A DNA stretch of 24,717 nucleotides from a virus (lineage: Duplodnaviria; Caudoviricetes), in IMG/VR virus record IMGVR_UViG_3300025610_000137, positions 1 to 24,717 of that record; one strand, 5' to 3'. This document shows, one piece after another, positions 6,039-23,197 of this stretch (positions are counted from its first letter, which is position 1; each line of letters starts with the position of its first letter). The translations under genes and the position numbers were made by a program. The notes under the pieces were generated by a model, which did not search any database, was not told where the DNA came from, and saw nothing but the letters and a program-made list of their open reading frames with translations.

Positions 6039-6400
6039 CCCGTGTCCTCTTCCGTAGCTTTCGGTAGGGTGTTGACGGCCATAACAAGCACGTCAACGAT
6101 AGCAGCAGGATTAGCTTGTACATATCCTAAAGCGCTGTTTAAGTCGTGTTCTGGTGTGTCTTTCGCATCATCGCAGTAGGCAAGGTGAGCAGCTAAATAG
6201 ATAGCAGCAAACCCCTTCCAGTCTGATAGCTTGACCCGTGCGGCGGCTATTCGTTTGTCCTCTTCCGCCTCCCGGACCCGTTGGAAATATACGAGCGCAT
6301 CGCTTAGAGCTTTGTAGGTTTCATCTACATACTCATGACCCAGAATTTCCCCCAGGTGCAAGGATGCGCCGTTATTCCAAATAACTTTAGCTTGCGACAT
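6023..6400 (-). CDS. Tail assembly chaperone G
   Basis: 125 aa between tail tube and tape measure genes; ends in a slippery sequence. Confidence 0.75.
   Translation of the reverse strand: MSQAKVIWNNGASLHLGEILGHEYVDETYKALSDALVYFQRVREAEEDKRIAAARVKLSDWKGFAAIYLAAHLAYCDDAKDTPEHDLNSALGYVQANPAAIVDVLVMAVNTLPKATEEDTGEAVA
6035..6041 (-). other. Programmed -1 ribosomal frameshift site G GGG GAG
   Basis: Minus strand reads ACG GGG GAG GCA GTA GCC TAA; a -1 shift enters the downstream ORF frame with no stop. Confidence 0.75.
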
Positions 6401-6794
6401 CGCGGACGATTGCGCCGGTGATCTGAAGAGTAGCCGTACAAGTGCTTACCTCGTTCTTAGGACCGTCCCAATCCAAAGTAGAAACAAGGCAGGAACCAGT
6501 AAGAACCTCCGAACCAGTAGACGCATGACCGTAAACGTACGCGGTAGAAGTACCGCCCTCCCAAGCATCGAAGATGTCCCCGAAGTTGGCTGAACTTACG
6601 TCCGGATCAAAAAGAAAAGTAGCCGAGATAGTCCCGCCCTTTTCACCAGCCAAGTAGTCTTTAGAGCCATTGGACTCATAGTTAGTCGCATCAATCATGT
6701 CAGCAGACAATGATACGTTAGAGGTAGTTACCCCTTTCAAGAATGTTCCTGCGCCAAATTCAAGGCGGATAAAACGGCCGTCTATTTTCGCCAT
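6387..6794 (-). CDS. Tail tube (major tail) protein, TP901-1-like
   Basis: 135 aa; pattern KIDG...SLSADMIDATN...YLAGEKGGTIS...LTGSCLVSTLDWDGPKNEVSTCTATLQITG; synteny. Confidence 0.85.
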   Translation of the reverse strand: MAKIDGRFIRLEFGAGTFLKGVTTSNVSLSADMIDATNYESNGSKDYLAGEKGGTISATFLFDPDVSSANFGDIFDAWEGGTSTAYVYGHASTGSEVLTGSCLVSTLDWDGPKNEVSTCTATLQITGAIVRDVAS

Positions 6795-6816
6795 TATGTA
6801 GAGTTTTTATGTGCTA

Positions 6817-6824
6817 CAAAATTA
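6817..6824 (-). promoter_or_regulatory. Bacteroidota-type -7 promoter box (TAATTTTG) for tail tube gene
   Basis: Matches TAnnTTTG, 22 nt upstream of the ATG at 6794 and just downstream of a terminator. Confidence 0.65.
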
Positions 6825-6833
6825 GGCAGAAAC

Positions 6834-6861
6834 AAAAAAGGGCCTCATCCCTGAGACCCTT
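6834..6861 (-). terminator. Intrinsic terminator
   Basis: AAGGGTCTCA-GGGA-TGAGGCCCTT hairpin (one G-U pair) followed by a T-run. Confidence 0.8.
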
Positions 6862-6898
6862 CAAAACCTAAATTGTAACCCGATATGAGAAAGCTACG
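6834..6898 (-). ncRNA. Putative antisense sRNA-A
   Basis: Bounded by a TACATTCG box (6902-6909) and a terminator; 6861-6897 is complementary to 31 of 37 nt around the start codon of the 9715-9909 gene. Confidence 0.55.
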
Positions 6899-6901
6899 CG
6901 G

Positions 6902-6909
6902 CGAATGTA
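6902..6909 (-). promoter_or_regulatory. -7 box variant TACATTCG for sRNA-A
   Basis: Same TAnnTTCG-CC variant as the leftward promoter at 23092-23099. Confidence 0.45.
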
Positions 6910-7446
6910 TTAAATCTCTTCAACCCTTACAAGCCAGTCCAAAGTTACAGACCATTCGTACCGGCTGTCCTGGACCTCTGGTAAGACATAGTTTACCGCT
7001 TCTAATTGCTGAGTAACAATATTAAAGCCGGTTACTGTTATACTGTCGAAGGTAGTAGGCTGCATAAGGTCCGCTACGGTATCCCCGAAGTTATTGAGAT
7101 CCTCTGCGCTTATACTTGTCCGCTCTGCTACTATTGCACATTTAACGGATATAGCCACTTCGTATATAAATTCATCCTGCGGGCCAGTCTCGTTTGTGTT
7201 CAGACCATAGATAAAGATATAAGCCTTATCCGCAAAGGTTGGCGTTTGTGAAGTGTAGGCCGGTATATAAGAACCCGTTAGGCTGGTGTTATCGCTGAAA
7301 CAAGTGCTTACAATTATGGACCCGCCGTCATCTATTACGCGCTGGACGTAGTTAAGGTTATAGGCTCCCGCCAATTCCGGGGCCAGTACCTTGTCTTTAA
7401 GTAGCGTATAAACCGCTTTAAGAATTTGCCCCTGCGCTAACTTCAT
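6910..7446 (-). CDS. Tail terminator/completion protein (DUF3168/gp17-like) with an apparent insertion
   Basis: 178 aa directly upstream of the tail tube gene; ILKAVYTLLK N-terminal helix and AYIFIYG motif; synteny. Confidence 0.65.
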   Translation of the reverse strand: MKLAQGQILKAVYTLLKDKVLAPELAGAYNLNYVQRVIDDGGSIIVSTCFSDNTSLTGSYIPAYTSQTPTFADKAYIFIYGLNTNETGPQDEFIYEVAISVKCAIVAERTSISAEDLNNFGDTVADLMQPTTFDSITVTGFNIVTQQLEAVNYVLPEVQDSRYEWSVTLDWLVRVEEI

Positions 7447-8167
7447 GTAACAAATTTACGGCGGCCCGCGCCCCCTTGTCCATCCGTCCTACTATATCCC
7501 GATAGTCCTCTGCTCGTTCGTTTTGGTACTTCTTGAACTTCCAAATATTTGTCTCGCTCTTAATGTCCACAATAAACGGCCGTTCCTCTTCGAAAGTTTC
7601 CATCCATACCCCAGCGGCCTTAAATTGCTTTTCGCTTAGTAGGTCCAGCTGGTTATTCATAGCCTTGGGCCATATAGGGCCGTTCTGTAACACTTTATCC
7701 ATAGCGGCGGCGCTCCATAGCCTACCGGCTCCAAAGACGCTGTTTACGCTTGTATGGGTCATAGCTGTACTTACCGCCCTCTGGGTACTCGGTTCTATAA
7801 AGTAAACGGACCGGCATCCTACATACTGTACCCCTCTGGTTAGGGCCTCTTCGTAGTATATGTCTGCTTCCTCTATAAATACATCGTCTGACCCTATTTG
7901 TAAATAGTAGTCAAACCGCCCTTGCATTATATTTAAAATAGCTTCCTGCTTATAGCTTAAAGGCTCATTCTCGGCAAATACAGACGCATACGGATAGCCG
8001 TAATGGTTTACCACTTGGGTAAGGTCATCCGGAAGGGACCAGCCTACGCATAGCTCTAAGTCTATGCCCATATTTCGCCACCTTATACGCATGGCCTTAA
8101 AGCTCTCTAAAGCAGCTCTAAGAACTAACGGACGGCCGTATAACGGCATCCAAACCCCTACCTTCAT
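7418..8167 (-). CDS. Glycosyltransferase-like protein (GT-A fold, GT2-like)
   Basis: N-terminal VGVWMPLYGRP strand, NEPLSYK, DXD-type LQIGSDD, and GAGR motif. Confidence 0.65.
   Translation of the reverse strand: MKVGVWMPLYGRPLVLRAALESFKAMRIRWRNMGIDLELCVGWSLPDDLTQVVNHYGYPYASVFAENEPLSYKQEAILNIMQGRFDYYLQIGSDDVFIEEADIYYEEALTRGVQYVGCRSVYFIEPSTQRAVSTAMTHTSVNSVFGAGRLWSAAAMDKVLQNGPIWPKAMNNQLDLLSEKQFKAAGVWMETFEEERPFIVDIKSETNIWKFKKYQNERAEDYRDIVGRMDKGARAAVNLLHEVSAGANS
7451..7458 (-). promoter_or_regulatory. -7 box TAAATTTG, 4 nt before the ATG at 7446
   Basis: TAnnTTTG consensus; same geometry as 9585-9592. Confidence 0.5.
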
Positions 8168-8661
8168 CGAATAAATCTAAGTATTCGTTTAATCTTCTTC
8201 TTGTAGCCTGGTATAACCTTCATATAGGCCGGTCTTAAAAACGGCTGAGGCTTTGTACCTCTCTTTGCTATAGTCTTCTGTACAGCGTAGGCCGCGCCCT
8301 CGTCTCCTAACTTTCTCTTAGCCCATTGCTTTAAGGGTCCGATAGGCGCCCAATGTGGAACGCTCCCGAACTCTACAGCGGCCGCATATTTCAAAGCCGT
8401 ACCGACTATATAAGTAACCCGCGCAGCTTGGCCCCTGAGCCTTCGGCTAATCTTAACGGATCGCGCTTGGCGTTGTACTTGAATAGATGAACCTAACCGG
8501 CCCAGGTTGTGGGGTGCTTTACGTGCTGCTAACTGCTGGACCTCTAAGGCAGCGTACCCAGTTTCCTGCTCTATCTTCTTAGCCACTCGGCCGCCGTAGG
8601 CCGATAGATCGCGCATGAGCTTGTCTATTTCACGCTGGTCTACTTTGAACTCTATACGCAC
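8164..8661 (-). CDS. HK97 gp10-like tail completion/neck protein
   Basis: APHNLGRLGSSI, YAAAVEFG and GTKPQPFLRPAY are signature-like motifs. Confidence 0.85.
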   Translation of the reverse strand: MRIEFKVDQREIDKLMRDLSAYGGRVAKKIEQETGYAALEVQQLAARKAPHNLGRLGSSIQVQRQARSVKISRRLRGQAARVTYIVGTALKYAAAVEFGSVPHWAPIGPLKQWAKRKLGDEGAAYAVQKTIAKRGTKPQPFLRPAYMKVIPGYKKKIKRILRFIR

Positions 8662-9011
8662 TACGCTTGCCGCTCTACTGCTTGAAAAGTTACAAAGGCC
8701 CTATCTGGTCCCTCTATGGCTGGACCGTCTACGCTCAGGCTTCTGCCTCTGTACTCTATTCTAAATACATCGCTCGGGAAGTCTGGGCCGTCAATATCTC
8801 CGGACCAATCCAAGCGGGAACGCATGGTAATTTCATACCTGGCCACGTTCAGTACCCGCGCATCGTCTGCATTTTTAGAACTGCCTAACCGCTTCACGTT
8901 TGCCCAGTCCGTAAAACTTACAGATTCTTTAGACCGAAAGCCGCCCATACTATCCGCCTGAGTTGTGTAGGCGTAGCACGTTACTTGCTCATTTAGTAGC
9001 CCCGGATTCAT
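8661..9011 (-). CDS. Head closure / head-tail joining protein (SPP1 gp16-like)
   Basis: MNPGLLNEQVT...DSMGG...WANV...YEITMR...RIEYRGR pattern; synteny. Confidence 0.85.
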   Translation of the reverse strand: MNPGLLNEQVTCYAYTTQADSMGGFRSKESVSFTDWANVKRLGSSKNADDARVLNVARYEITMRSRLDWSGDIDGPDFPSDVFRIEYRGRSLSVDGPAIEGPDRAFVTFQAVERQA

Positions 9012-9580
9012 AGGAAGAGCTTAGTACGTTCCTTAGCCAGCAAACTGTTTAGATCCGCCTTCAAGTTGGCTACTATAGTACCCGTTACGCTTATGCCTCG
9101 GTTCTGGTACAGCTCGGCGCATATCTTAATAATAGCCTCTTTTACGTTCTCAGTAACGTAGGACAGTTGGGCCACATAAGTAACCGTATAAGTCGAATAA
9201 GCCGTAGGCGATGGAATACGAAGCCGTCCCCCGGTTAGTAGGTAGTAGTCCTCGTCTGCTGTTAGGGTAGTGTTTAGCCCTTCCAGGTCCTGACCTACTA
9301 CGGAAGTAATAGAGCTTACCGGACCCATAGGCAGCACGTATCTAAGTTCTCCGGCGTCCATGTCTCGGTCATCGTCAAAGTCCCAAAGGATCGCCTGCAT
9401 TCGGTTTTCATTCAAGCTCTGGCCTATGTAGGTTTCTACGTATCGCGTAGAGGCTTCTAACTGCCTATCTATTAGGTCATCTTCGCCGGTGATGTTTACG
9501 GCGCGGGCATAGGTCCGAAAGTCTGCACGGCTGATAATGTTAGCCGGAGTAACCGCCGTTACTGTATGGTCTATTCTCAT
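9008..9580 (-). CDS. Head-tail connector (HK97 gp6/SPP1 gp15-like)
   Basis: EDDLIDRQLEASTRYVETYIGQSL, LPMGPVSSITSV, VKEAIIKICAELYQNR. Confidence 0.85.
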   Translation of the reverse strand: MRIDHTVTAVTPANIISRADFRTYARAVNITGEDDLIDRQLEASTRYVETYIGQSLNENRMQAILWDFDDDRDMDAGELRYVLPMGPVSSITSVVGQDLEGLNTTLTADEDYYLLTGGRLRIPSPTAYSTYTVTYVAQLSYVTENVKEAIIKICAELYQNRGISVTGTIVANLKADLNSLLAKERTKLFL

Positions 9581-9584
9581 GCTT

Positions 9585-9592
9585 CAAAGTTA
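9585..9592 (-). promoter_or_regulatory. -7 box TAACTTTG, 4 nt before the ATG at 9580
   Basis: TAnnTTTG consensus immediately downstream of a terminator. Confidence 0.6.
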
Positions 9593-9598
9593 CGGCAT

Positions 9599-9624
9599 AA
9601 GAAAGCCCCGCATTACACGGGGCT
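9599..9624 (-). terminator. Intrinsic terminator closing sRNA-B
   Basis: AGCCCCG-TGTAATG-CGGGGCT hairpin followed by TTCTT. Confidence 0.7.
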
Positions 9625-9668
9625 ACCACCAAACACCTAAACAGACATGAAAACATGAAAGTAAGCTA
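9599..9668 (-). ncRNA. Putative antisense sRNA-B
   Basis: Isolated by an upstream terminator, its own TATCTTTG box and a downstream terminator. Contains two anti-start-codon TCATG motifs and TTTAGGTGTTTG. Confidence 0.6.
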
Positions 9669-9671
9669 ACG

Positions 9672-9679
9672 CAAAGATA
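9672..9679 (-). promoter_or_regulatory. -7 box TATCTTTG for sRNA-B
   Basis: Perfect TAnnTTTG between two terminators. Confidence 0.65.
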
Positions 9680-9686
9680 GGGCAAT

Positions 9687-9708
9687 AAAAAAGCCCCCGG
9701 AGGGGCTT
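9687..9708 (-). terminator. Intrinsic terminator of the 64-aa moron
   Basis: AAGCCCC-TCCG-GGGGCTT followed by TTTT, 6 nt after the stop codon. Confidence 0.8.
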
Positions 9709-9714
9709 GGCTGT

Positions 9715-9909
9715 TTACTTCTTTATGTAGAGATATTTAAAGGATCTGCCGTTTACTTCTTTGGTCCAAGCGCTGTACCCCTTTTCTGCAAGTTCTCTAT
9801 TTATTATTGAATGCAGGTCTAAGTGCATTTCGGTTTGGCCAGCGTACTCTACCTCTTTAACGTAGTCAGCTCTTTTCTTAAGGCTTTCAATTTTAGTAGC
9901 GTTTGTCAT
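9715..9909 (-). CDS. Hypothetical 64-aa protein; moron with its own promoter and terminator
   Basis: ATG preceded by an A/C-rich leader; flanked by terminators; inserted between capsid and connector genes. Confidence 0.7.
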   Translation of the reverse strand: MTNATKIESLKKRADYVKEVEYAGQTEMHLDLHSIINRELAEKGYSAWTKEVNGRSFKYLYIKK

Positions 9910-9937
9910 GTCGGTGTTTTTAGGTTGTTTGATGTAT

Positions 9938-10003
9938 CAAAGGTGCAAAGCCTCTACATACCCTACAAGCATTTTAACATTTGCGCCCAGACTTTAACAT
10001 TTG
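9938..10003 (-). promoter_or_regulatory. Moron promoter (CTTG-N20-CACCTTTG) with upstream direct repeat CAAATGTTAAA x2
   Basis: Near-consensus -33/-7 spacing; plus-strand TTTAACATTTG at 9973-9983 and 9993-10003. Confidence 0.55.
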
Positions 10004-10008
10004 AGCAT

Positions 10009-10033
10009 AAAAAAAGGGGACCGAAGCCCCCTT
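10009..10033 (-). terminator. Intrinsic terminator after the major capsid gene
   Basis: AAGGGGGC-TTCG-GTCCCCTT with a cUUCGg tetraloop and T-run. Confidence 0.9.
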
Positions 10034-10053
10034 AGTAATTACTCAAGCTACTA

Positions 10054-11313
10054 CTATGTAGGAGTAATGATGTACTTAACGTTCGCGTAAGTGTCGGTAA
10101 ATACCGCGTTATCGTGCTTACGAACGTGAGCCAGGCGCTCCTCTACGCGGACAGTAACCAAATTCTTCTGAGCGTTGTCAGAATCCTGAGGGAAGAACTG
10201 TACGGAAGGTGCAGAACGCTGGAACAGCTGAGAAGCTGCGGCCTTGTCGAACACGAAGAACGAGCCTTCAGCTACTGCGCTGCTGTGATACACAGGCATA
10301 CCGAAAAGGGTATAAGTGTTCTGTACAGCGTCAAAGTAGTAAGGCGCTACGTACTGGCCGTTAGATCCCTTAGAACCGATCATAGCGAAGAAGTCGGTAG
10401 GGTTCACCATAACGCAATCGGCCATGAAGTCCTGAGAAGCCAAGTAGCCGGAAGCAGCTTGGATGCAGTCCCAGTTGTTAGGCTCGGCCCAGTTGGCTGT
10501 AGTGCTGAGGTCGGTATGGTCAGCAGCAGCGGCCGCGAGTCCGTAGAGGTCAGTACCCGCTCCGGTTCCAGTAAGCAGCTGGCTGTCCTCCTGGTTCATG
10601 AGCAAACGAGTAAGCTCGTACGAAAGGTAGGAAGTCATGCCGCTGATATCGTCCAGCATCTGAGTAGAGATACGAGCGAAAGCAGCAATTACCTGAGCGT
10701 TGAAAGTCTGCTCGGCCATGTCCTTGTCTACCTGGTTCTTTGCAAGACCCTCGGTCTGGTTGCCGGCTGTGCCTTCGCCGCCAGTTACCTTAGCATACCG
10801 TACGCTGTCTCCGATCATTGTTCCCTGGGGAATGAAATTACGGACACGGTTAGGGCGGTCTACGTCTGGAAGGATGGGCAAACGAGTTTGCTCGGCTACG
10901 TCTCCAGTAGTAGAAGCTGCAAAGGTCATAGTACCTACAGCCTTAGTGAGCATACCGGGAATACGAATACCCTTATGAATTGAAGGATCGTTCTTGTAAG
11001 CCTCGTACTCTGGGTTCTCTACGATACTCTTGGCCATAGCCTCGGAAGTAGTCAGCTCGGCCGCCTTTGTTGTAGCCATACCGTTTTTGGTAAGCTCCTT
11101 TAGACGAGCGTCCAGCTTGTCGCTGTGCTTCTGTACTTCTTCGCTGTTGCCTTGTACCTCTTTGACCAGGTCGGTCAGCTTGTCGATTTGGCTGCTGTAG
11201 TCAGCTTGGCCCTTTGTGATTGCATCAATGCGGCCGTTGAGCTCTTCTCTGGTCTTTTCTACAGAGCTGGAAACGTCCGAAGCAATCTTGTTCAATTGTT
11301 CTTCTGCGTTCAT
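10054..11313 (-). CDS. Major capsid protein, HK97 fold with N-terminal delta/scaffold domain
   Basis: Coiled-coil N-terminal ~120 aa, then IAAFARISTQMLDD, EDSQLLTGTG, TLFGMPVY, KNLVTVRVEERL. Confidence 0.95.
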   Translation of the reverse strand: MNAEEQLNKIASDVSSSVEKTREELNGRIDAITKGQADYSSQIDKLTDLVKEVQGNSEEVQKHSDKLDARLKELTKNGMATTKAAELTTSEAMAKSIVENPEYEAYKNDPSIHKGIRIPGMLTKAVGTMTFAASTTGDVAEQTRLPILPDVDRPNRVRNFIPQGTMIGDSVRYAKVTGGEGTAGNQTEGLAKNQVDKDMAEQTFNAQVIAAFARISTQMLDDISGMTSYLSYELTRLLMNQEDSQLLTGTGAGTDLYGLAAAAADHTDLSTTANWAEPNNWDCIQAASGYLASQDFMADCVMVNPTDFFAMIGSKGSNGQYVAPYYFDAVQNTYTLFGMPVYHSSAVAEGSFFVFDKAAASQLFQRSAPSVQFFPQDSDNAQKNLVTVRVEERLAHVRKHDNAVFTDTYANVKYIITPT

Positions 11314-16039: not shown

Positions 16040-16047
16040 CAAAGTTA
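16040..16047 (-). promoter_or_regulatory. -7 box TAACTTTG for packaging genes
   Basis: TAnnTTTG overlapping the upstream stop codon. Confidence 0.5.
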
Positions 16048-16917
16048 GGCGTAGTCTTCCACTATCTCTAAAATCCGGGGTATACGCGCCGCCCATCTAT
16101 GATACTCATACGTATAGTCTGCTACTTGTTTGGGGTTCGGCATCTCTTCGGTCCAATGGCCTGGGTAGCCTATGAAGCTCAAAGGGTGTTCGGCTGTTAT
16201 GTCCGTTTCTCCCATCTGGCAAATGATCGCCCCGCAAGCCTGCGCCCTTATTACCCTATCCGAATAAAATAACGGCCGGTCGAAGTGGTCAAGGTTCAAG
16301 GCCCAGCGGTTTGTATTGTAAATAATGCGCTCGGTCTTAGGTGTGGTCCTTCCGTTCTTGTTCTTTGGCCAGTTACCGCCGAATACTCTTAGGCCCTTCT
16401 CTCGGTATTGTGTTACTACCTCTTCGCGCCTTGCACTCTCTGGGAATCTGTTTCTGTAATTGTTGCCTAAGAATACTACGCCCTCGGTCCTTCGCTCCCT
16501 TCCGTCCAAGTAGTATACATCAGGATCGTACCCTATTTGCAAGTAGTCCGCTGGTAGTCCCTTCTCTTTGAACTTGTCTATGTCGGTGCCATTGGTAAAC
16601 AGTGTTACGTTAAAGGCGTCCCCCAGCTCTAAATACCAGTCTATATTTTCTCTTACATCCCCGGTCCAGTTGATGACTACGCAGCCCATTTCTCTAAGGC
16701 TCTCTACTAACCGGGCTTCTACTATACCGGGAGTTTGTATCTGCATGAAGACAACATCGGGTAGAAAGCTCTGGGCTTCCTTTAGGACCATCTTAGTAAG
16801 GTAGATCAGTTGGGCGCTCGGTATCTCTCTCCAGTTTATCCGGTGTACATCATGTCCTAACCCTCTCAGGGCTTTGTCTATTTCGGGGCCTCCCAGCCCT
16901 ACGTGTAGTACTCTCAT
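16045..16917 (-). CDS. Glycosyltransferase, GT-B fold (CgeB/DUF3880-like)
   Basis: MRVLHVG, PDVVFMQ, NWTGD, IGYDP, VVFLGN, VFGGNW, SDRVIRAQACG. Confidence 0.8.
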   Translation of the reverse strand: MRVLHVGLGGPEIDKALRGLGHDVHRINWREIPSAQLIYLTKMVLKEAQSFLPDVVFMQIQTPGIVEARLVESLREMGCVVINWTGDVRENIDWYLELGDAFNVTLFTNGTDIDKFKEKGLPADYLQIGYDPDVYYLDGRERRTEGVVFLGNNYRNRFPESARREEVVTQYREKGLRVFGGNWPKNKNGRTTPKTERIIYNTNRWALNLDHFDRPLFYSDRVIRAQACGAIICQMGETDITAEHPLSFIGYPGHWTEEMPNPKQVADYTYEYHRWAARIPRILEIVEDYA

Positions 16918-17459
16918 AGCTGTATTGGTCTTAAAAGTTTGTACGGTCCGGGTATCTTTTCCTTTTCTCGGTCGTACGTTCTGAATTTACTTTCGTGTTT
17001 ATGGTAGGTCTTTATAGATAGGCAGGGGTTAGTTATCGCGTACCCGGCTTCCCATATCTCGTAAGCTATCCGGTTATCACATCCAGCAACGCCCAGGCGG
17101 AAGTCTATTGGCTGCTTTAGTAGTCGGTCTTTTACAGACCCCTTAAATATCCAAACATCCTGAGACCACCAAGGCCGCCCCCATAGTTTGCCCCTTTCGT
17201 ATCTCGTTAGTGCGTAGCAGTCGTTAGGCTGCATCTTGTCGCAGAGCTTTATACTGTCATCGAAGTATATATCTGAATTGGCCACTATGTTAATAGCATC
17301 CTCAGAGCAAAGGGTAAAGAGGTCTTTATACGTTGGTCGGCCCTTAGGCATTAGGACCGTATCGAACCGCTCCCGGTTTAGGCGTTCGCAGTACCTCAGC
17401 TCTTCGTTTCTTCTTGGCTCTGGTGCTTCCCAATAGGGTGTGATTAGTTGGTATTTCAT
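16914..17459 (-). CDS. Glycosyltransferase-like protein (GT-A-like)
   Basis: IVANSDIYFD (DXD-type), ALTRYE, SQDVWIF, LGVAGCDNRIA, NP...H.H; adjacent to a GT-B gene. Confidence 0.55.
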   Translation of the reverse strand: MKYQLITPYWEAPEPRRNEELRYCERLNRERFDTVLMPKGRPTYKDLFTLCSEDAINIVANSDIYFDDSIKLCDKMQPNDCYALTRYERGKLWGRPWWSQDVWIFKGSVKDRLLKQPIDFRLGVAGCDNRIAYEIWEAGYAITNPCLSIKTYHKHESKFRTYDREKEKIPGPYKLLRPIQL

Positions 17460-17770: not shown

Positions 17771-18463
17771 CTAATTTCGGCGGTCGTATAAGCTCAGGGT
17801 AGGAAGGTTGCCTATTTGGTCATAGTAGGCGCACATAATAGCCGCCTTATTTATTACCTCCGGGTCCTCTTTTACCTCGCCCCTTGTATTCCGTGCCTTT
17901 ATTACTTCTTCCCAAGCCCCTGGGTTCATATTGGCCATGTCCTTAGCGCTGACCTTTTGTACCCAGTAGTCGGTAGGTTCGGTCGGTAGGCTTATACCGT
18001 AGTCCCGAGCCGTTACCCAGGCGGACCAGAGTTTACGCGCTATTATGCTGCTTTGCTTATTCCCTTGTATGGAGCTACGGAATACGTTTAACCCATTAGC
18101 TAAGGCTTGTACTGCCTCGCTGTGCTTCTCTTCCCTTGTAAATTCTTTCTTTACTGCCTTCGGTTTGTCCTTCTCAAGTTTGGCGCCCGATCCTTTAAAC
18201 TCCTGAAACTCTCTTAATACCTCGCCTATAAAGTGGGCGTTTAGGTTCCGGGGTCTGCGGAGCTGCTTGAACATTCCGTTAGACCAGTTTCTAAAAGCAT
18301 ACTGTAGGTCCTGGTAACTAACCGAGCCATGGAACTGCTTAAGGTCTACAATGATCTCGGCTACTATATCCAGGTTAGGCAGGGTAATGTCGTTCTTTCT
18401 GCATACTGCGCTAAAGAACTCGGTAAGCTCGCTTACGCTTTTGCCTTGTATTCGTTCGTTCAT
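17771..18463 (-). CDS. Hypothetical protein (replication-region, helical)
   Basis: 230-aa ORF in the operon; no motif recognised. Confidence 0.7.
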   Translation of the reverse strand: MNERIQGKSVSELTEFFSAVCRKNDITLPNLDIVAEIIVDLKQFHGSVSYQDLQYAFRNWSNGMFKQLRRPRNLNAHFIGEVLREFQEFKGSGAKLEKDKPKAVKKEFTREEKHSEAVQALANGLNVFRSSIQGNKQSSIIARKLWSAWVTARDYGISLPTEPTDYWVQKVSAKDMANMNPGAWEEVIKARNTRGEVKEDPEVINKAAIMCAYYDQIGNLPTLSLYDRRN

Positions 18464-18707
18464 CTCTCTTTGGTGTTAAAGGTTTTGTCGTACCATTCTT
18501 CACCCGTTACTATTGTAGGGTCTATTTCACTATCGTACACTTTTTTATTGCCGTGTGTTTTGATTAGAAGAGCTTTCTCTTTCTCAAGCATATTACTCAA
18601 AATAGATTCAATGACTCCTATTGGATTGATAACTGCATCAATTTGTCTTAACGATTGTACTTTTTCAATCGCTTCTTCTATTGGTGTTTTCATCTCTCTT
18701 TGTTGTT
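18459..18707. repeat. 19-bp direct repeat flanking the 77-aa gene
   Basis: TTCATCTCTCTTTGGTGTT (18459-18477) and TTCATCTCTCTTTGTTGTT (18689-18707), 18/19 identical. Confidence 0.8.
18460..18693 (-). CDS. Hypothetical 77-aa protein (MKTPIEE...FNTKER)
   Basis: ATG at 18693 overlaps the upstream TGA (ATGA), a better start than the listed 18759. Confidence 0.65.
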   Translation of the reverse strand: MKTPIEEAIEKVQSLRQIDAVINPIGVIESILSNMLEKEKALLIKTHGNKKVYDSEIDPTIVTGEEWYDKTFNTKER

Positions 18708-18857
18708 TAGGTCTTTTAAGGTCTTCAGTTTTGCCGCTGCTAATTGCTTGGCGTCCCACTTTATGGGAAGGCTAACTAAGGACCGTAAGTTACTTTCTTC
18801 AGTTATTAGCTGCCTACGGTCTAAGCCGTTTAAGTACGCTTTGTATTCGTCTATCAT
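18690..18857 (-). CDS. Hypothetical 55-aa protein (not in ORF track)
   Basis: MIDEYKAYLNGLDRRQLITEESNLRSLVSLPIKWDAKQLAAAKLKTLKDLNNKER; ATGA overlaps at both ends fill the gap exactly. Confidence 0.65.
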   Translation of the reverse strand: MIDEYKAYLNGLDRRQLITEESNLRSLVSLPIKWDAKQLAAAKLKTLKDLNNKER

Positions 18858-19746: not shown

Positions 19747-20724
19747 TCAAATAAGGCTAAGCTGGTTTTCTGCAAACCTTTGTTCAGCCGCTTTTAAGTT
19801 CTGTTTGGCTTGTTTAAAATAGCTGTCCTTAAGCTCTATGCCTATGGCCTTTCTGCCCATACTTACCGGGCTGTAAACCTCGGACCCCACGCCCATAAAA
19901 GGCGTTAGCACTACTTCGCCCGGGTTAGACCATAGTTCAACGCATCGGTCTATAACATCCAGTTGCAACGGGTGTACGTGCTTTTCATCGTCCTCCTCTT
20001 TACTGTCTCTAAAAGGTAGTACGTTATCTATTCGTATATCGTCCCATACAGACGAGGCGTACCGCTGCCAAATAAGGTGAGACCGTTTGTTAGTCTTAGG
20101 ATCTGTACACCCTTCGTACTTTTTACAAATAGCGTCCCAGCTTCCGTAAGTCTCTTCCATGGCTGGAAGCAAAGGCGTAGCACCGGCGTAATAGTCTAAG
20201 CCGACTGGATGCGTTACGGGTACTTCTGTTTCCCCTTTACGCTTAAAGATTAACAAGTAATCCGGCATAGCGGTAAAACAGCTCGTACTATCCTCTACTA
20301 TATTTTTGTGCATTAGGCTACGGACCATTGTACGCATACGCACTTTTAGAGGCTCTTTCCAGATCGTTATTCGATTCTTGTAATTAAAGCCGCGTTCTTC
20401 GTGCATCCTGATAATTTCGTGCGGGAAGTCCCAAAGGTTTTCAGTCTTTGAGTTCATTACATCCGTGCAATGTACCGCCGTTATTCGCCCTGGCTTAGTT
20501 ACTCGGCTTATCTCATCTATCAAATACTCGTACTGCTGTAAAAACTGTTCGCGGCTTTCACAGTTAGAAAAGTCATTTTCTGAGCTTGAGTAATTATACA
20601 GCCCGGCAAAAGGCGGCGAATAAATGCTAAGGTCTACGCTTGCCTCTTTTAAAGATGGTAAGACGTGCATGCAATCGCTGTTATAGATCGCGTATCTGTC
20701 TGTTACTACTTGGTCTTTGGTCAT
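19747..20724 (-). CDS. DNA methyltransferase, N4-C/N6-A family (beta class)
   Basis: Catalytic SPPF near the N-terminus; HVHPLQLD; SAM-binding VVLTPFMGVGS; AIGIEL. Confidence 0.9.
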   Translation of the reverse strand: MTKDQVVTDRYAIYNSDCMHVLPSLKEASVDLSIYSPPFAGLYNYSSSENDFSNCESREQFLQQYEYLIDEISRVTKPGRITAVHCTDVMNSKTENLWDFPHEIIRMHEERGFNYKNRITIWKEPLKVRMRTMVRSLMHKNIVEDSTSCFTAMPDYLLIFKRKGETEVPVTHPVGLDYYAGATPLLPAMEETYGSWDAICKKYEGCTDPKTNKRSHLIWQRYASSVWDDIRIDNVLPFRDSKEEDDEKHVHPLQLDVIDRCVELWSNPGEVVLTPFMGVGSEVYSPVSMGRKAIGIELKDSYFKQAKQNLKAAEQRFAENQLSLI

Positions 20725-20725
20725 G

Positions 20726-22090
20726 TTAGATCCATTTAGGTGTTTGTACTGTTTGGTTAAATTCTCGGCTACTTAGCTGAAAGTCTGAATTTATACTTTT
20801 ATTCAGCTTGTCAAATAGCTCATCGGCTTTCTTTGTTTTCTCTCTAAGGCTGTCTATAACTCTCTTTTGCCCTTCTGAGTAAACCAGGTCCACGGTTACG
20901 TCTTTAGTCTGTCCAAAGCGGTAAAACCTTCTTATAGCTTGGTAATACTGCTCATAGGAGAAAGTAGGAAAGTAAACGGTATGGCTGCAATGCTGCCAAT
21001 TAAGACCGAAAGCGGTCATTTTAGGCTTAGTAATTAGGCGCTTTATATCGCCCTTTGCAAAGGCCAGTAGTATATCCTCTTTTTGGTCTATAGACATTCC
21101 GCCTTTAATCTCTTTGGCGTCTTTGTCTAACTGTCCTATTAGCTCGCCTTCATTATTAAAGTTGCACCAATAGACCGAGGTTTTACCCTGGGCCAGTTCT
21201 ACGGCCTTGGCGCATCTTTCATTTATGGTCATTTTCTGTTCCTGCCTAACCTCTGTTAATCTTTGCGCGATCATCGCAAACATCATTACCTGACCGTCTA
21301 CAATCCATTGGTCTTTATTGTGGACTTTGTGCGGTATGACATTAAGCGCCGGTAATTTGTGGCGATCATCCGAAAAGCCAAGGTCCGAGGGCTTGCGCAT
21401 ACTTACAGACCAGGAACTAACCCAGCGGAAAAAGTCATCTTTAGCGTGTGGCTTTAAATAAAACTTGTTTCCTATACGGTCCATGGCCTTTATATTGTTC
21501 TCATTGTTAGAAAAGAACTTACCGAGCATATCCATATACCCCATATACCCTAAAGCCTCGGAGCTGGTCCCAAGCTCTATAAAATCATTCGGGGAAGGTG
21601 TGGCCGTGAATAGAAAGCGGTATTTTACCCGCTTCATAAAAGCGGTAACTGTTGCCTTTGTTGATCCGTCAAAGTTCTTAAGTATTGAACTTTCGTCCAG
21701 TATAACACAATCAAAGTCATCCGGGTTAAACTTGTCCAACCGTTCGTAATTACATACTACTACATCGCTGGTGAACTTCCCGTCTTTGCTGTATTGTACT
21801 TCTGACGTACCGAACTTTTTAGCCTCTTCAATAAACTGAAAGGCCACGGCTAAAGGGGTTAAGATTAACACGGGCTTATTAGTGGCCCTTGCGTAGTTTT
21901 CAGCTACGGTTAATTCTATTACAGTCTTGCCCAATCCAGTATCTAAAAAGACAGCGCACCGGCCTTTTTTTATAGCGTACTCAGCTACATATTTTTGATA
22001 GTCAAACATAGCCGCGGCCATAAACGAGGGTTTTATACCGTAGTCAATAGAGCTATGTTTTTTGGACTTAATAAAGTCTGCGTATTTCAT
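20726..22090 (-). CDS. SF2 (SNF2-like) helicase
   Basis: Walker A DTGLGKT, motif II ILDESS, TATPSPN, FGLNWQ, QAIRRFYRFGQ. Start at ATG 22090 (ATGA overlap). Confidence 0.9.
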   Translation of the reverse strand: MKYADFIKSKKHSSIDYGIKPSFMAAAMFDYQKYVAEYAIKKGRCAVFLDTGLGKTVIELTVAENYARATNKPVLILTPLAVAFQFIEEAKKFGTSEVQYSKDGKFTSDVVVCNYERLDKFNPDDFDCVILDESSILKNFDGSTKATVTAFMKRVKYRFLFTATPSPNDFIELGTSSEALGYMGYMDMLGKFFSNNENNIKAMDRIGNKFYLKPHAKDDFFRWVSSWSVSMRKPSDLGFSDDRHKLPALNVIPHKVHNKDQWIVDGQVMMFAMIAQRLTEVRQEQKMTINERCAKAVELAQGKTSVYWCNFNNEGELIGQLDKDAKEIKGGMSIDQKEDILLAFAKGDIKRLITKPKMTAFGLNWQHCSHTVYFPTFSYEQYYQAIRRFYRFGQTKDVTVDLVYSEGQKRVIDSLREKTKKADELFDKLNKSINSDFQLSSREFNQTVQTPKWI

Positions 22091-22269
22091 TGGTCCTGCT
22101 CTTTTAACAGTTTCACCCATTCGATATGCTGGACCAGGGCCAGGCGTTCCCATTCCTGGAACCCGGCGGCGTTAATCTGCTCTATTAAGTGGTCCAGCTC
22201 TTTGTTCGTGCGCTCGCTCAGCCCGTGGCTAATCTCCGTGCGTAAATCGTGTCTTATCGCGCTTATCAT
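22087..22269 (-). CDS. Hypothetical protein
   Basis: 60 aa, ATGA-coupled on both sides. Confidence 0.65.
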   Translation of the reverse strand: MISAIRHDLRTEISHGLSERTNKELDHLIEQINAAGFQEWERLALVQHIEWVKLLKEQDQ

Positions 22270-23091: not shown

Positions 23092-23197
23092 CGAATATAA
23101 ACAAGTTTTTAGATAGGGGTTAAATTTTAACATTTCGTCCGCGTTTTAACACTTTTTACCCCTTTTTGCGAAAAGTTAGAAAAGCCGTTTATATTTG
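23092..23197. promoter_or_regulatory. Divergent promoter region
   Basis: Plus strand: TTTG(23165-23168)-N21-TATATTTG(23190-23197), a full Bacteroidota consensus. Minus strand: TATATTCG (23099-23092). TTTAACA repeats lie between. Confidence 0.75.

Follow-up and report, generated by a model that had tools for sequence, protein, structure and literature searches.

Two short non-coding cassettes, A and B, lie on the minus strand in the late region of a tailed phage known from IMG/VR record IMGVR_UViG_3300025610_000137 (Duplodnaviria; Caudoviricetes), of which we analysed a stretch of 24,717 nucleotides (nt), referred to here as the window. We propose that the two, which are conserved and predicted to be stand-alone small-RNA (sRNA) genes, yield products that form an antisense brake on the accessory gene held in a slot behind the major capsid gene, whatever gene occupies it, and we regard this proposal as evenly poised between right and wrong. 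Both cassettes have one architecture, in which a -7 promoter box is followed by 65-70 nt, a terminator, a further -7 box and a structural gene, and the coordinates given for them in an original prediction were confirmed. That prediction had read the cassettes as sRNAs that block translation initiation; start-blocking is the part of it that is best supported, while a role as dedicated type I antitoxins, which it also offered, is unlikely because the 64-amino-acid (aa) gene now in the slot is swapped or missing in relatives in which B stays. Judging from sequence, both cassettes are probably transcribed.

Complementarity to the start of the slot gene carries this proposal. The slot at present holds the 64-aa accessory (moron) open reading frame (ORF) at 9715..9909, preceded by a 24-nt leader at 9910..9933 that is shared by several cargos and predicted to be unstructured. 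This leader is the predicted target of both A (about 65 nt, 6833..6897) and B (about 70 nt, 9598..9667); these and all other window features given with coordinates below lie on the minus strand. Pairing was evaluated against 41 phage start regions with shuffled controls, using energies that ignore the RNAs' own folding. A pairs with the start of the 64-aa gene, 3 kb away, at -26.0 kcal/mol compared with -11.9 +/- 2.7 in shuffles (0/500), this start ranks first of the 41 (z -5.1), and none of 250 shuffles reaches that value on any start. It is also the top antisense site for A on both strands of the window plus the missing arm of the genome (1/300 shuffles), together about 31 kb, a genome size deduced because a related contig links both window ends. 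For B the slot start likewise ranks first of 41 (z -3.6; 1/500 shuffles nominally, 16/250 family-wise) and is the top antisense site in the window and missing arm (3/300 shuffles), and its next three antisense sites are gene starts too. B has in addition a bias towards early-gene starts (4/250 shuffles; 2/250 for its common allele). The earlier claim that both transcripts match the start of the 64-aa gene thus stands for A, which beats its shuffled controls, and moderately for B. The start of a methyltransferase gene gave the strongest energy of all for B and was rejected as a target, the site being in the last codons of the helicase gene and the match likely due to chance; this region occurs in only two of the loci collected, and four other early arms have other genes there.

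The slot is bounded by a terminator after the major capsid gene (10014..10033), which in empty-slot relatives is joined directly to the B promoter, and by a closing terminator at 9691..9708. Its promoter (9938..9999) consists of a -7-like box at 9945-9938 and TGTTAAA boxes at 9999-9993 and 9979-9973, a layout shared with the leftward early promoter (23092..23151), in which two TGTTAAA boxes 19-20 bp apart also precede a -7-like box. In a survey of 16 close loci and further loci, the same promoter and 24-nt leader stood before four unrelated ORFs of 64, 129, 80 and 76 aa, three slot ORFs had other leaders and two loci were empty, with B kept throughout. Contigs from all four of four sequencing runs swap cargo at about the start codon. 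One cargo carries an LPD29 domain and the other tested cargos matched no family above the cut-off. An invertible element was considered and rejected, as all cargos displayed point one way. Slot contents recorded along the way include the LPD29-domain protein (L005:5476-5865), a NUMOD4-HNH endonuclease (L113:291-839) and an excisionase-like helix-turn-helix protein (L115:1242-1523). At L009:5512-5590 and L018:5492-5600, two cargos with similar N-termini have longer leaders with an internal hairpin in place of the common leader.

This exchange of cargo bears directly on the idea of a type I-like toxin-antitoxin pair, in which the RNAs would specifically neutralise a toxic 64-aa protein. Pairing by A does extend into the opening codons of the 64-aa gene, where it is at its strongest (z -5.1 to -5.8; other cargos, -2.3 to -3.8). 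Co-inheritance of an antisense RNA with one small toxin gene was nevertheless not what the loci held: B accompanies six cargos besides the 64-aa gene, seven in all, as well as two empty-slot loci, the window type of A is found where the slot is empty (L004/L040), and the 64-aa gene is found alongside the other A allele. The 64-aa protein itself is charged, has no long hydrophobic stretch, falls into a single 98%-identical cluster and has no PHROG or Pfam family. We therefore consider a dedicated toxin-antitoxin system very improbable.

Conservation of the cassettes was assessed in hand-picked close loci, 22 for A and 21 for B, some of which are possibly the same strain assembled twice. A was present in 22/22 and B in 21/21. 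Variable positions numbered 15/76 in A and 9/81 in B, as against 51/136, 82/179 and 63/191 (33-46%) of the third codon positions in flanking genes (Fisher's test, A against 133/315, p 1.5e-4; B against 63/191, p 8e-5). The RNA bodies alone gave 7/36 variable positions for A (p 0.005) and 6/43 for B (p 0.009), which supports purifying selection on both. The A promoter box had one variable position in the 22 loci and the B box was invariant in the 21. Ten aligned A sequences had an invariant 5' stem with a varying loop, and two terminator pairs changed on both sides in three of the ten. A search of Rfam 15, suggested earlier as a check, returned no match in the window at the gathering score; the seven weak Rfam matches in 6500-10200 (E 0.26-9.6) were mostly terminators.

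These patterns also weigh on a second alternative, that the units are non-functional or merely punctuate the DNA, as inverted remnants of slot leaders or as U/G-rich spacers between promoter and terminator at insertion hot spots. Both positions are indeed such hot spots, an inverted copy of the leader would produce complementarity without function, and the post-capsid unit is absent from distant relatives with 43-51% capsid identity (51% and 43%). The weak pairing of the common alleles, given below, also suits this explanation. It accounts poorly for bodies conserved beyond third codon positions, for a promoter and terminator in the same orientation around the body and for the retained structure of A, and no inverted cargo was present among the slot contents displayed, so that we think it improbable.

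Each predicted RNA has the parts expected of a stand-alone unit. The predicted 5' ends were placed by the 4-5 nt spacing from box to transcription start reported in PMC6847099, with 4 nt applied. In A, a -7-like box with one mismatch to TAnnTTTG (6902..6909) is followed by a predicted 5' hairpin of 5-7 bp (6897-6875) with an anti-AUG triplet in its loop, an unpaired U/G-rich stretch and an intrinsic terminator (stem 6837..6862, U tract to about 6834). In B, a perfect -7 box (9672..9679) precedes two anti-AUG triplets, a weakly folded body and a terminator (stem 9604..9624) with an interrupted U tract. Folding z-scores were -3.6 for A (1/200 shuffles) and -2.8 for B (2/200), with the terminators contributing most. 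A 38-aa frame, the only long one in B, was rejected as a small ORF, being broken in the commonest B allele. The transcripts had been said to resemble each other, a claim that was not confirmed: the likeness is marginal, an alignment just as good being reached in 101 of 2000 shuffles, and B is missed at E<=1 by a covariance model of A. The same model, run on 52 sources, found an element at the same position in a 76%-identical relative (E 0.01). Rather than demonstrable paralogues, A and B are better seen as two separate mirrors of one leader.

Comparison between clades was made with a 14 by 20 pairing matrix, whose elements were picked after complementarity had been seen. On five starts with the common leader of clade 1, the window's own, A gave z -2.3 to -5.8, against means of 0.0 on six clade-2 starts and 0.2 on six clade-3 starts. 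Clade 3, at 54-55% capsid identity, has a distinct promoter-hairpin-seed-terminator unit directly after the capsid gene, followed by a slot with one of six cargos or none. Two alleles of this post-capsid element gave mean z -2.0 and -2.7 on six clade-3 starts, compared with -0.8 and -0.2 on eight clade-1 starts. The unpaired middle of the element is invariant in 9/9 loci, and the complement of this middle can be aligned to 11 slot leaders from clade 3; in the flanking hairpins all cells pair, yet 0/14 pairs changed on both sides. Such clade-matched pairing is the best independent support for the proposal, though it amounts to two cases and implies no homology of the units. Taken with purifying selection and the compensatory changes in the A terminator, it leaves the reading of A and B as trans-acting, start-blocking RNAs partly supported. 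Clade-3 loci (L043:2010-2150, L138-L145) also have a conserved, apparently structured 100-nt non-coding stretch between the slot cargo and the next late gene, with a terminator at its end, and clade 2 has a similar short non-coding stretch after a small cargo.

The same matrix speaks to a role in exclusion, by which the RNAs would chiefly silence accessory genes of related phages infecting the same cell. Many strains co-occur in one run, and the element that clade 2 has in the A position pairs a little more strongly with clade-1 slot starts (mean z -0.8 and -1.2) than with those of its own clade (-0.4 and +0.2). Both A and the clade-3 post-capsid element, by contrast, pair most strongly within their own clade, and a scan of 35 proteins (29 in the window and six in the missing arm) revealed no integrase or repressor, so that a resident state is not apparent. 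We give exclusion hardly any credence.

Several results, besides the way in which the matrix elements were chosen, weigh against a brake on the slot. It is the alleles present in the window that match strongly: on the slot start, the second A allele (9/22 loci) reaches only z -3.2 and rank 2 (41/250 family-wise), and the commonest B allele (11/21 loci) ranks this start 12/41. Within clade 1 there is no correspondence between an allele and the cargo or leader of the contig that carries it, three clade-1 cargo leaders are matched by neither A nor B (z -1.1 to +1.3), and A has no early-start bias (43/250). In the sister clades, two clade-2 elements have no match to clade-2 leaders, none of five clade-3 elements in the A position matches clade-3 leaders (mean z -0.3 to +0.3), and the clade-3 post-capsid element also pairs with clade-2 leaders (mean z -1.3 and -1.2), three of six of which fit (z -1.9 to -3.7). 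RNAalifold, moreover, folds part of the clade-3 seed into a stem. The five clade-3 units in the A position, after a 177-aa gene (L045:5525-5690, L110, L114, L115 and L043), alternate with one another as promoter-short RNA-terminator units, each has an anti-AUG triplet, and they sit before further accessory genes.

The original prediction recognised no described family, which no longer holds, as start-blocking sRNAs of a described kind exist in FopS and GibS. PMC11697453 describes the FopS RNAs of B. thetaiotaomicron as translational repressors that pair at start codons, target the starts of SusC-like outer-membrane and polysaccharide-utilisation mRNAs and bind RbpB, and notes a FopS-type sequence in one Caudovirales phage. 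A and B resemble FopS (RF04319) in predicted length (about 65-70 nt), -7 promoter (canonical in B, one mismatch in A), a U-rich 5' part with an anti-AUG triplet, intrinsic terminator and predicted pairing at starts. A differs in its predicted 5' hairpin, the corresponding part of FopS being single-stranded, and both differ in that FopS acts on host mRNAs whereas they are predicted to act on the accessory slot of the phage itself. The FopS covariance model matched A at 6831-6897 (19.1 bits, E 0.02), the only match reported in the window, and the second A allele at 23.1 bits, with none reported for B; these scores are below the RF04319 gathering threshold of 56 bits, and at E<=10 the model also has matches in 8/14 control genomes. 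A and B are thus not members of this family, while by prediction working like it. A FopS-like unit in a distant phage (L088:900-1000; 22.7 bits, E 0.003), with head-morphogenesis genes on one side and protease genes on the other, means that the layout is not confined to this phage group. A pattern scan for the layout in viral contigs, run without a control pattern and so carrying no claim of breadth, gave 12 loci, six of them in this clade; of the other six only L051 has an obvious terminator.

GibS of B. thetaiotaomicron is trans-acting and blocks translation by pairing at start codons, and shares with A and B an extended A/U-rich seed across the start codon of an mRNA lacking a Shine-Dalgarno sequence. 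It differs in its length of about 145 nt, non-canonical promoter, two seeds and chromosomal metabolic targets (PMC7366714), and has no Rfam match in the window. Our literature search, which had subscription journals and supplements outside its scope, found no paper on such RNAs in Bacteroidota phages beyond the remark in the FopS paper. Two phage precedents frame the comparison further. The c4 antisense RNA of phages P1 and P7 is likewise phage-encoded and shuts off a phage gene by base-pairing close to the start of that gene; found in temperate enterobacterial phages, it is structured, is produced by processing and has a single fixed target operon. Unlike c4, which had no Rfam match in the window, A and B would target a leader with interchangeable cargo. 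HK97-like phages carry morons, promoter-gene-terminator units between late genes, and the slot after the capsid gene is of this sort; unlike such morons, A and B are non-coding, occupy the same kind of position and mirror the leader of the coding units. The present locus is distinguished by a swappable slot behind a fixed leader, together with clade-matched antisense units.

The likeness to FopS raises an alternative that we take seriously while holding it unlikely: A and B may imitate FopS from within the phage genome and act chiefly on host mRNAs, for instance those of outer-membrane transporters that serve as receptors, or may titrate a host RbpB-type protein, the match to the slot leader then following from the shared character of Bacteroidota gene starts. 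The SusC-like targets of FopS would suit such mimicry. Of the two main A alleles, the one with the poorer fit to the slot has the higher FopS score (23.1 bits, compared with 19.1), and the five clade-3 units in the A position carry an anti-AUG triplet and match no leader of their own clade. The main A alleles, read antisense, correspond to M-R-K and M-K-K starts, which are typical of exported proteins, and not to the M-T-N start of the cargo. Left unexplained by mimicry of a host RNA are the coincidence that the best site for A in about 31 kb is the slot start, and the clade-matched pattern.

Under the proposed brake on the slot, the free 5' parts of A and B would pair with the slot leader and start codon. 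Bacteroidota ribosomes depend on a short unstructured leader and the AUG (PMC6847099), and pairing that covers both may block ribosome loading; by analogy with FopS and GibS, repression would occur by occlusion. The brake would limit an early-type cassette lodged inside the highly expressed late region: the slot promoter is probably of early type because the early-promoter layout is copied, and B is probably made late because its promoter resembles those of structural genes. B may be the broader brake, in keeping with its weak early-start bias, whereas A would be tighter. In some structural genes just 4 nt separate the -7 box from the start codon; the mRNAs of these genes would be leaderless and so would escape. 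This is so in the window for the head-tail adaptor gene (9592-9580) and the 178-aa gene (7458-7446), for both of which the spacing from box to start codon is 4 nt in four of the five relatives displayed and 5 nt in the fifth (L025, L043, L148 and L149 included). The two mRNAs are accordingly predicted to be leaderless, a feature conserved across clades; the major tail gene retains a leader, and F. johnsoniae transcripts are mostly leadered (PMC6847099).

Assembled contigs place related strains in RNA libraries; contigs cannot reveal whether an RNA is discrete, where it ends or from which strand it comes. Of 13 sequencing runs listed in a search for transcripts, none contained half of the query words, and seven different runs examined consisted of contigs throughout. 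One contig from an RNA run ends at 9669; this was rejected as a transcript start, since the same end is also found in 3/3 runs not recorded as RNA and is therefore a branch in the assembly graph.

The window holds most of an HK97-type siphophage. Its terminase, portal, protease, capsid, connector and tail genes lie on the minus strand, and near 23,100 there is a divergent early region. Around cassette A lie the 178-aa gene that ends at its promoter (6910..7446; no PHROG or Pfam match), possibly the tail terminator by its position, and the major tail protein gene (6387..6794; phrog_1407, E 1.6e-14) with its -7 box (6817..6824). B is followed by a -7 box (9585..9592), which 4 nt separate from the start codon of the adaptor gene, and by that gene itself (9008..9580; phrog_442, E 1.9e-18), and the slot is preceded by the HK97-type major capsid gene (10054..11313; phrog_10, E 1.1e-43). 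The host is probably a member of the Bacteroidota, because TAnnTTTG boxes stand before many genes, sigma-70 sites are depleted (one observed, 7.3 expected) and prophage-like capsid matches occur in named genomes (six, at 27-31% identity, all in Bacteroidota and related lineages). Cultured phages gave DNA matches at terminator level only and capsid identity below 30%. TAnnTTTG, the -7 consensus given in PMC6847099, is not over-represented by count (26 boxes in the window against 19.0 +/- 4.6 expected, as many being reached in 9/100 shuffles), and the weight of the boxes rests on their placement.

The early arm is mosaic (18463-18760 and 19747-22153), a helicase-methyltransferase pair and small ORFs being replaced or absent in relatives. 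In front of these small ORFs is a repeated junction sequence, partly matched by B. At 19732-19580, a -7 box is followed by a G/C-rich, apparently structured leader of about 145 nt and then a replication-initiator-like gene. Inside and before the virion module are conserved genes without a family match (7418-8167, 16045-16917 and 16914-17459), which may be glycosyltransferases by their look.

More tentatively still, the locus may represent cargo-independent silencing, in which genes are swapped behind a standard leader, antisense RNAs are re-tuned in each clade and leaderless structural mRNAs are immune, with the cassettes acting as exchangeable non-coding morons. The timing of gene expression in Bacteroidota phages is little described, and this locus is unusually testable: its leader measures 24 nt, both RNAs are short, the naturally occurring alleles differ in how well they fit, and a sister clade offers another leader and another RNA. 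If the proposal is true, the phage applies the FopS principle to itself, and one RNA would govern an open-ended set of accessory genes through the leader that they share.

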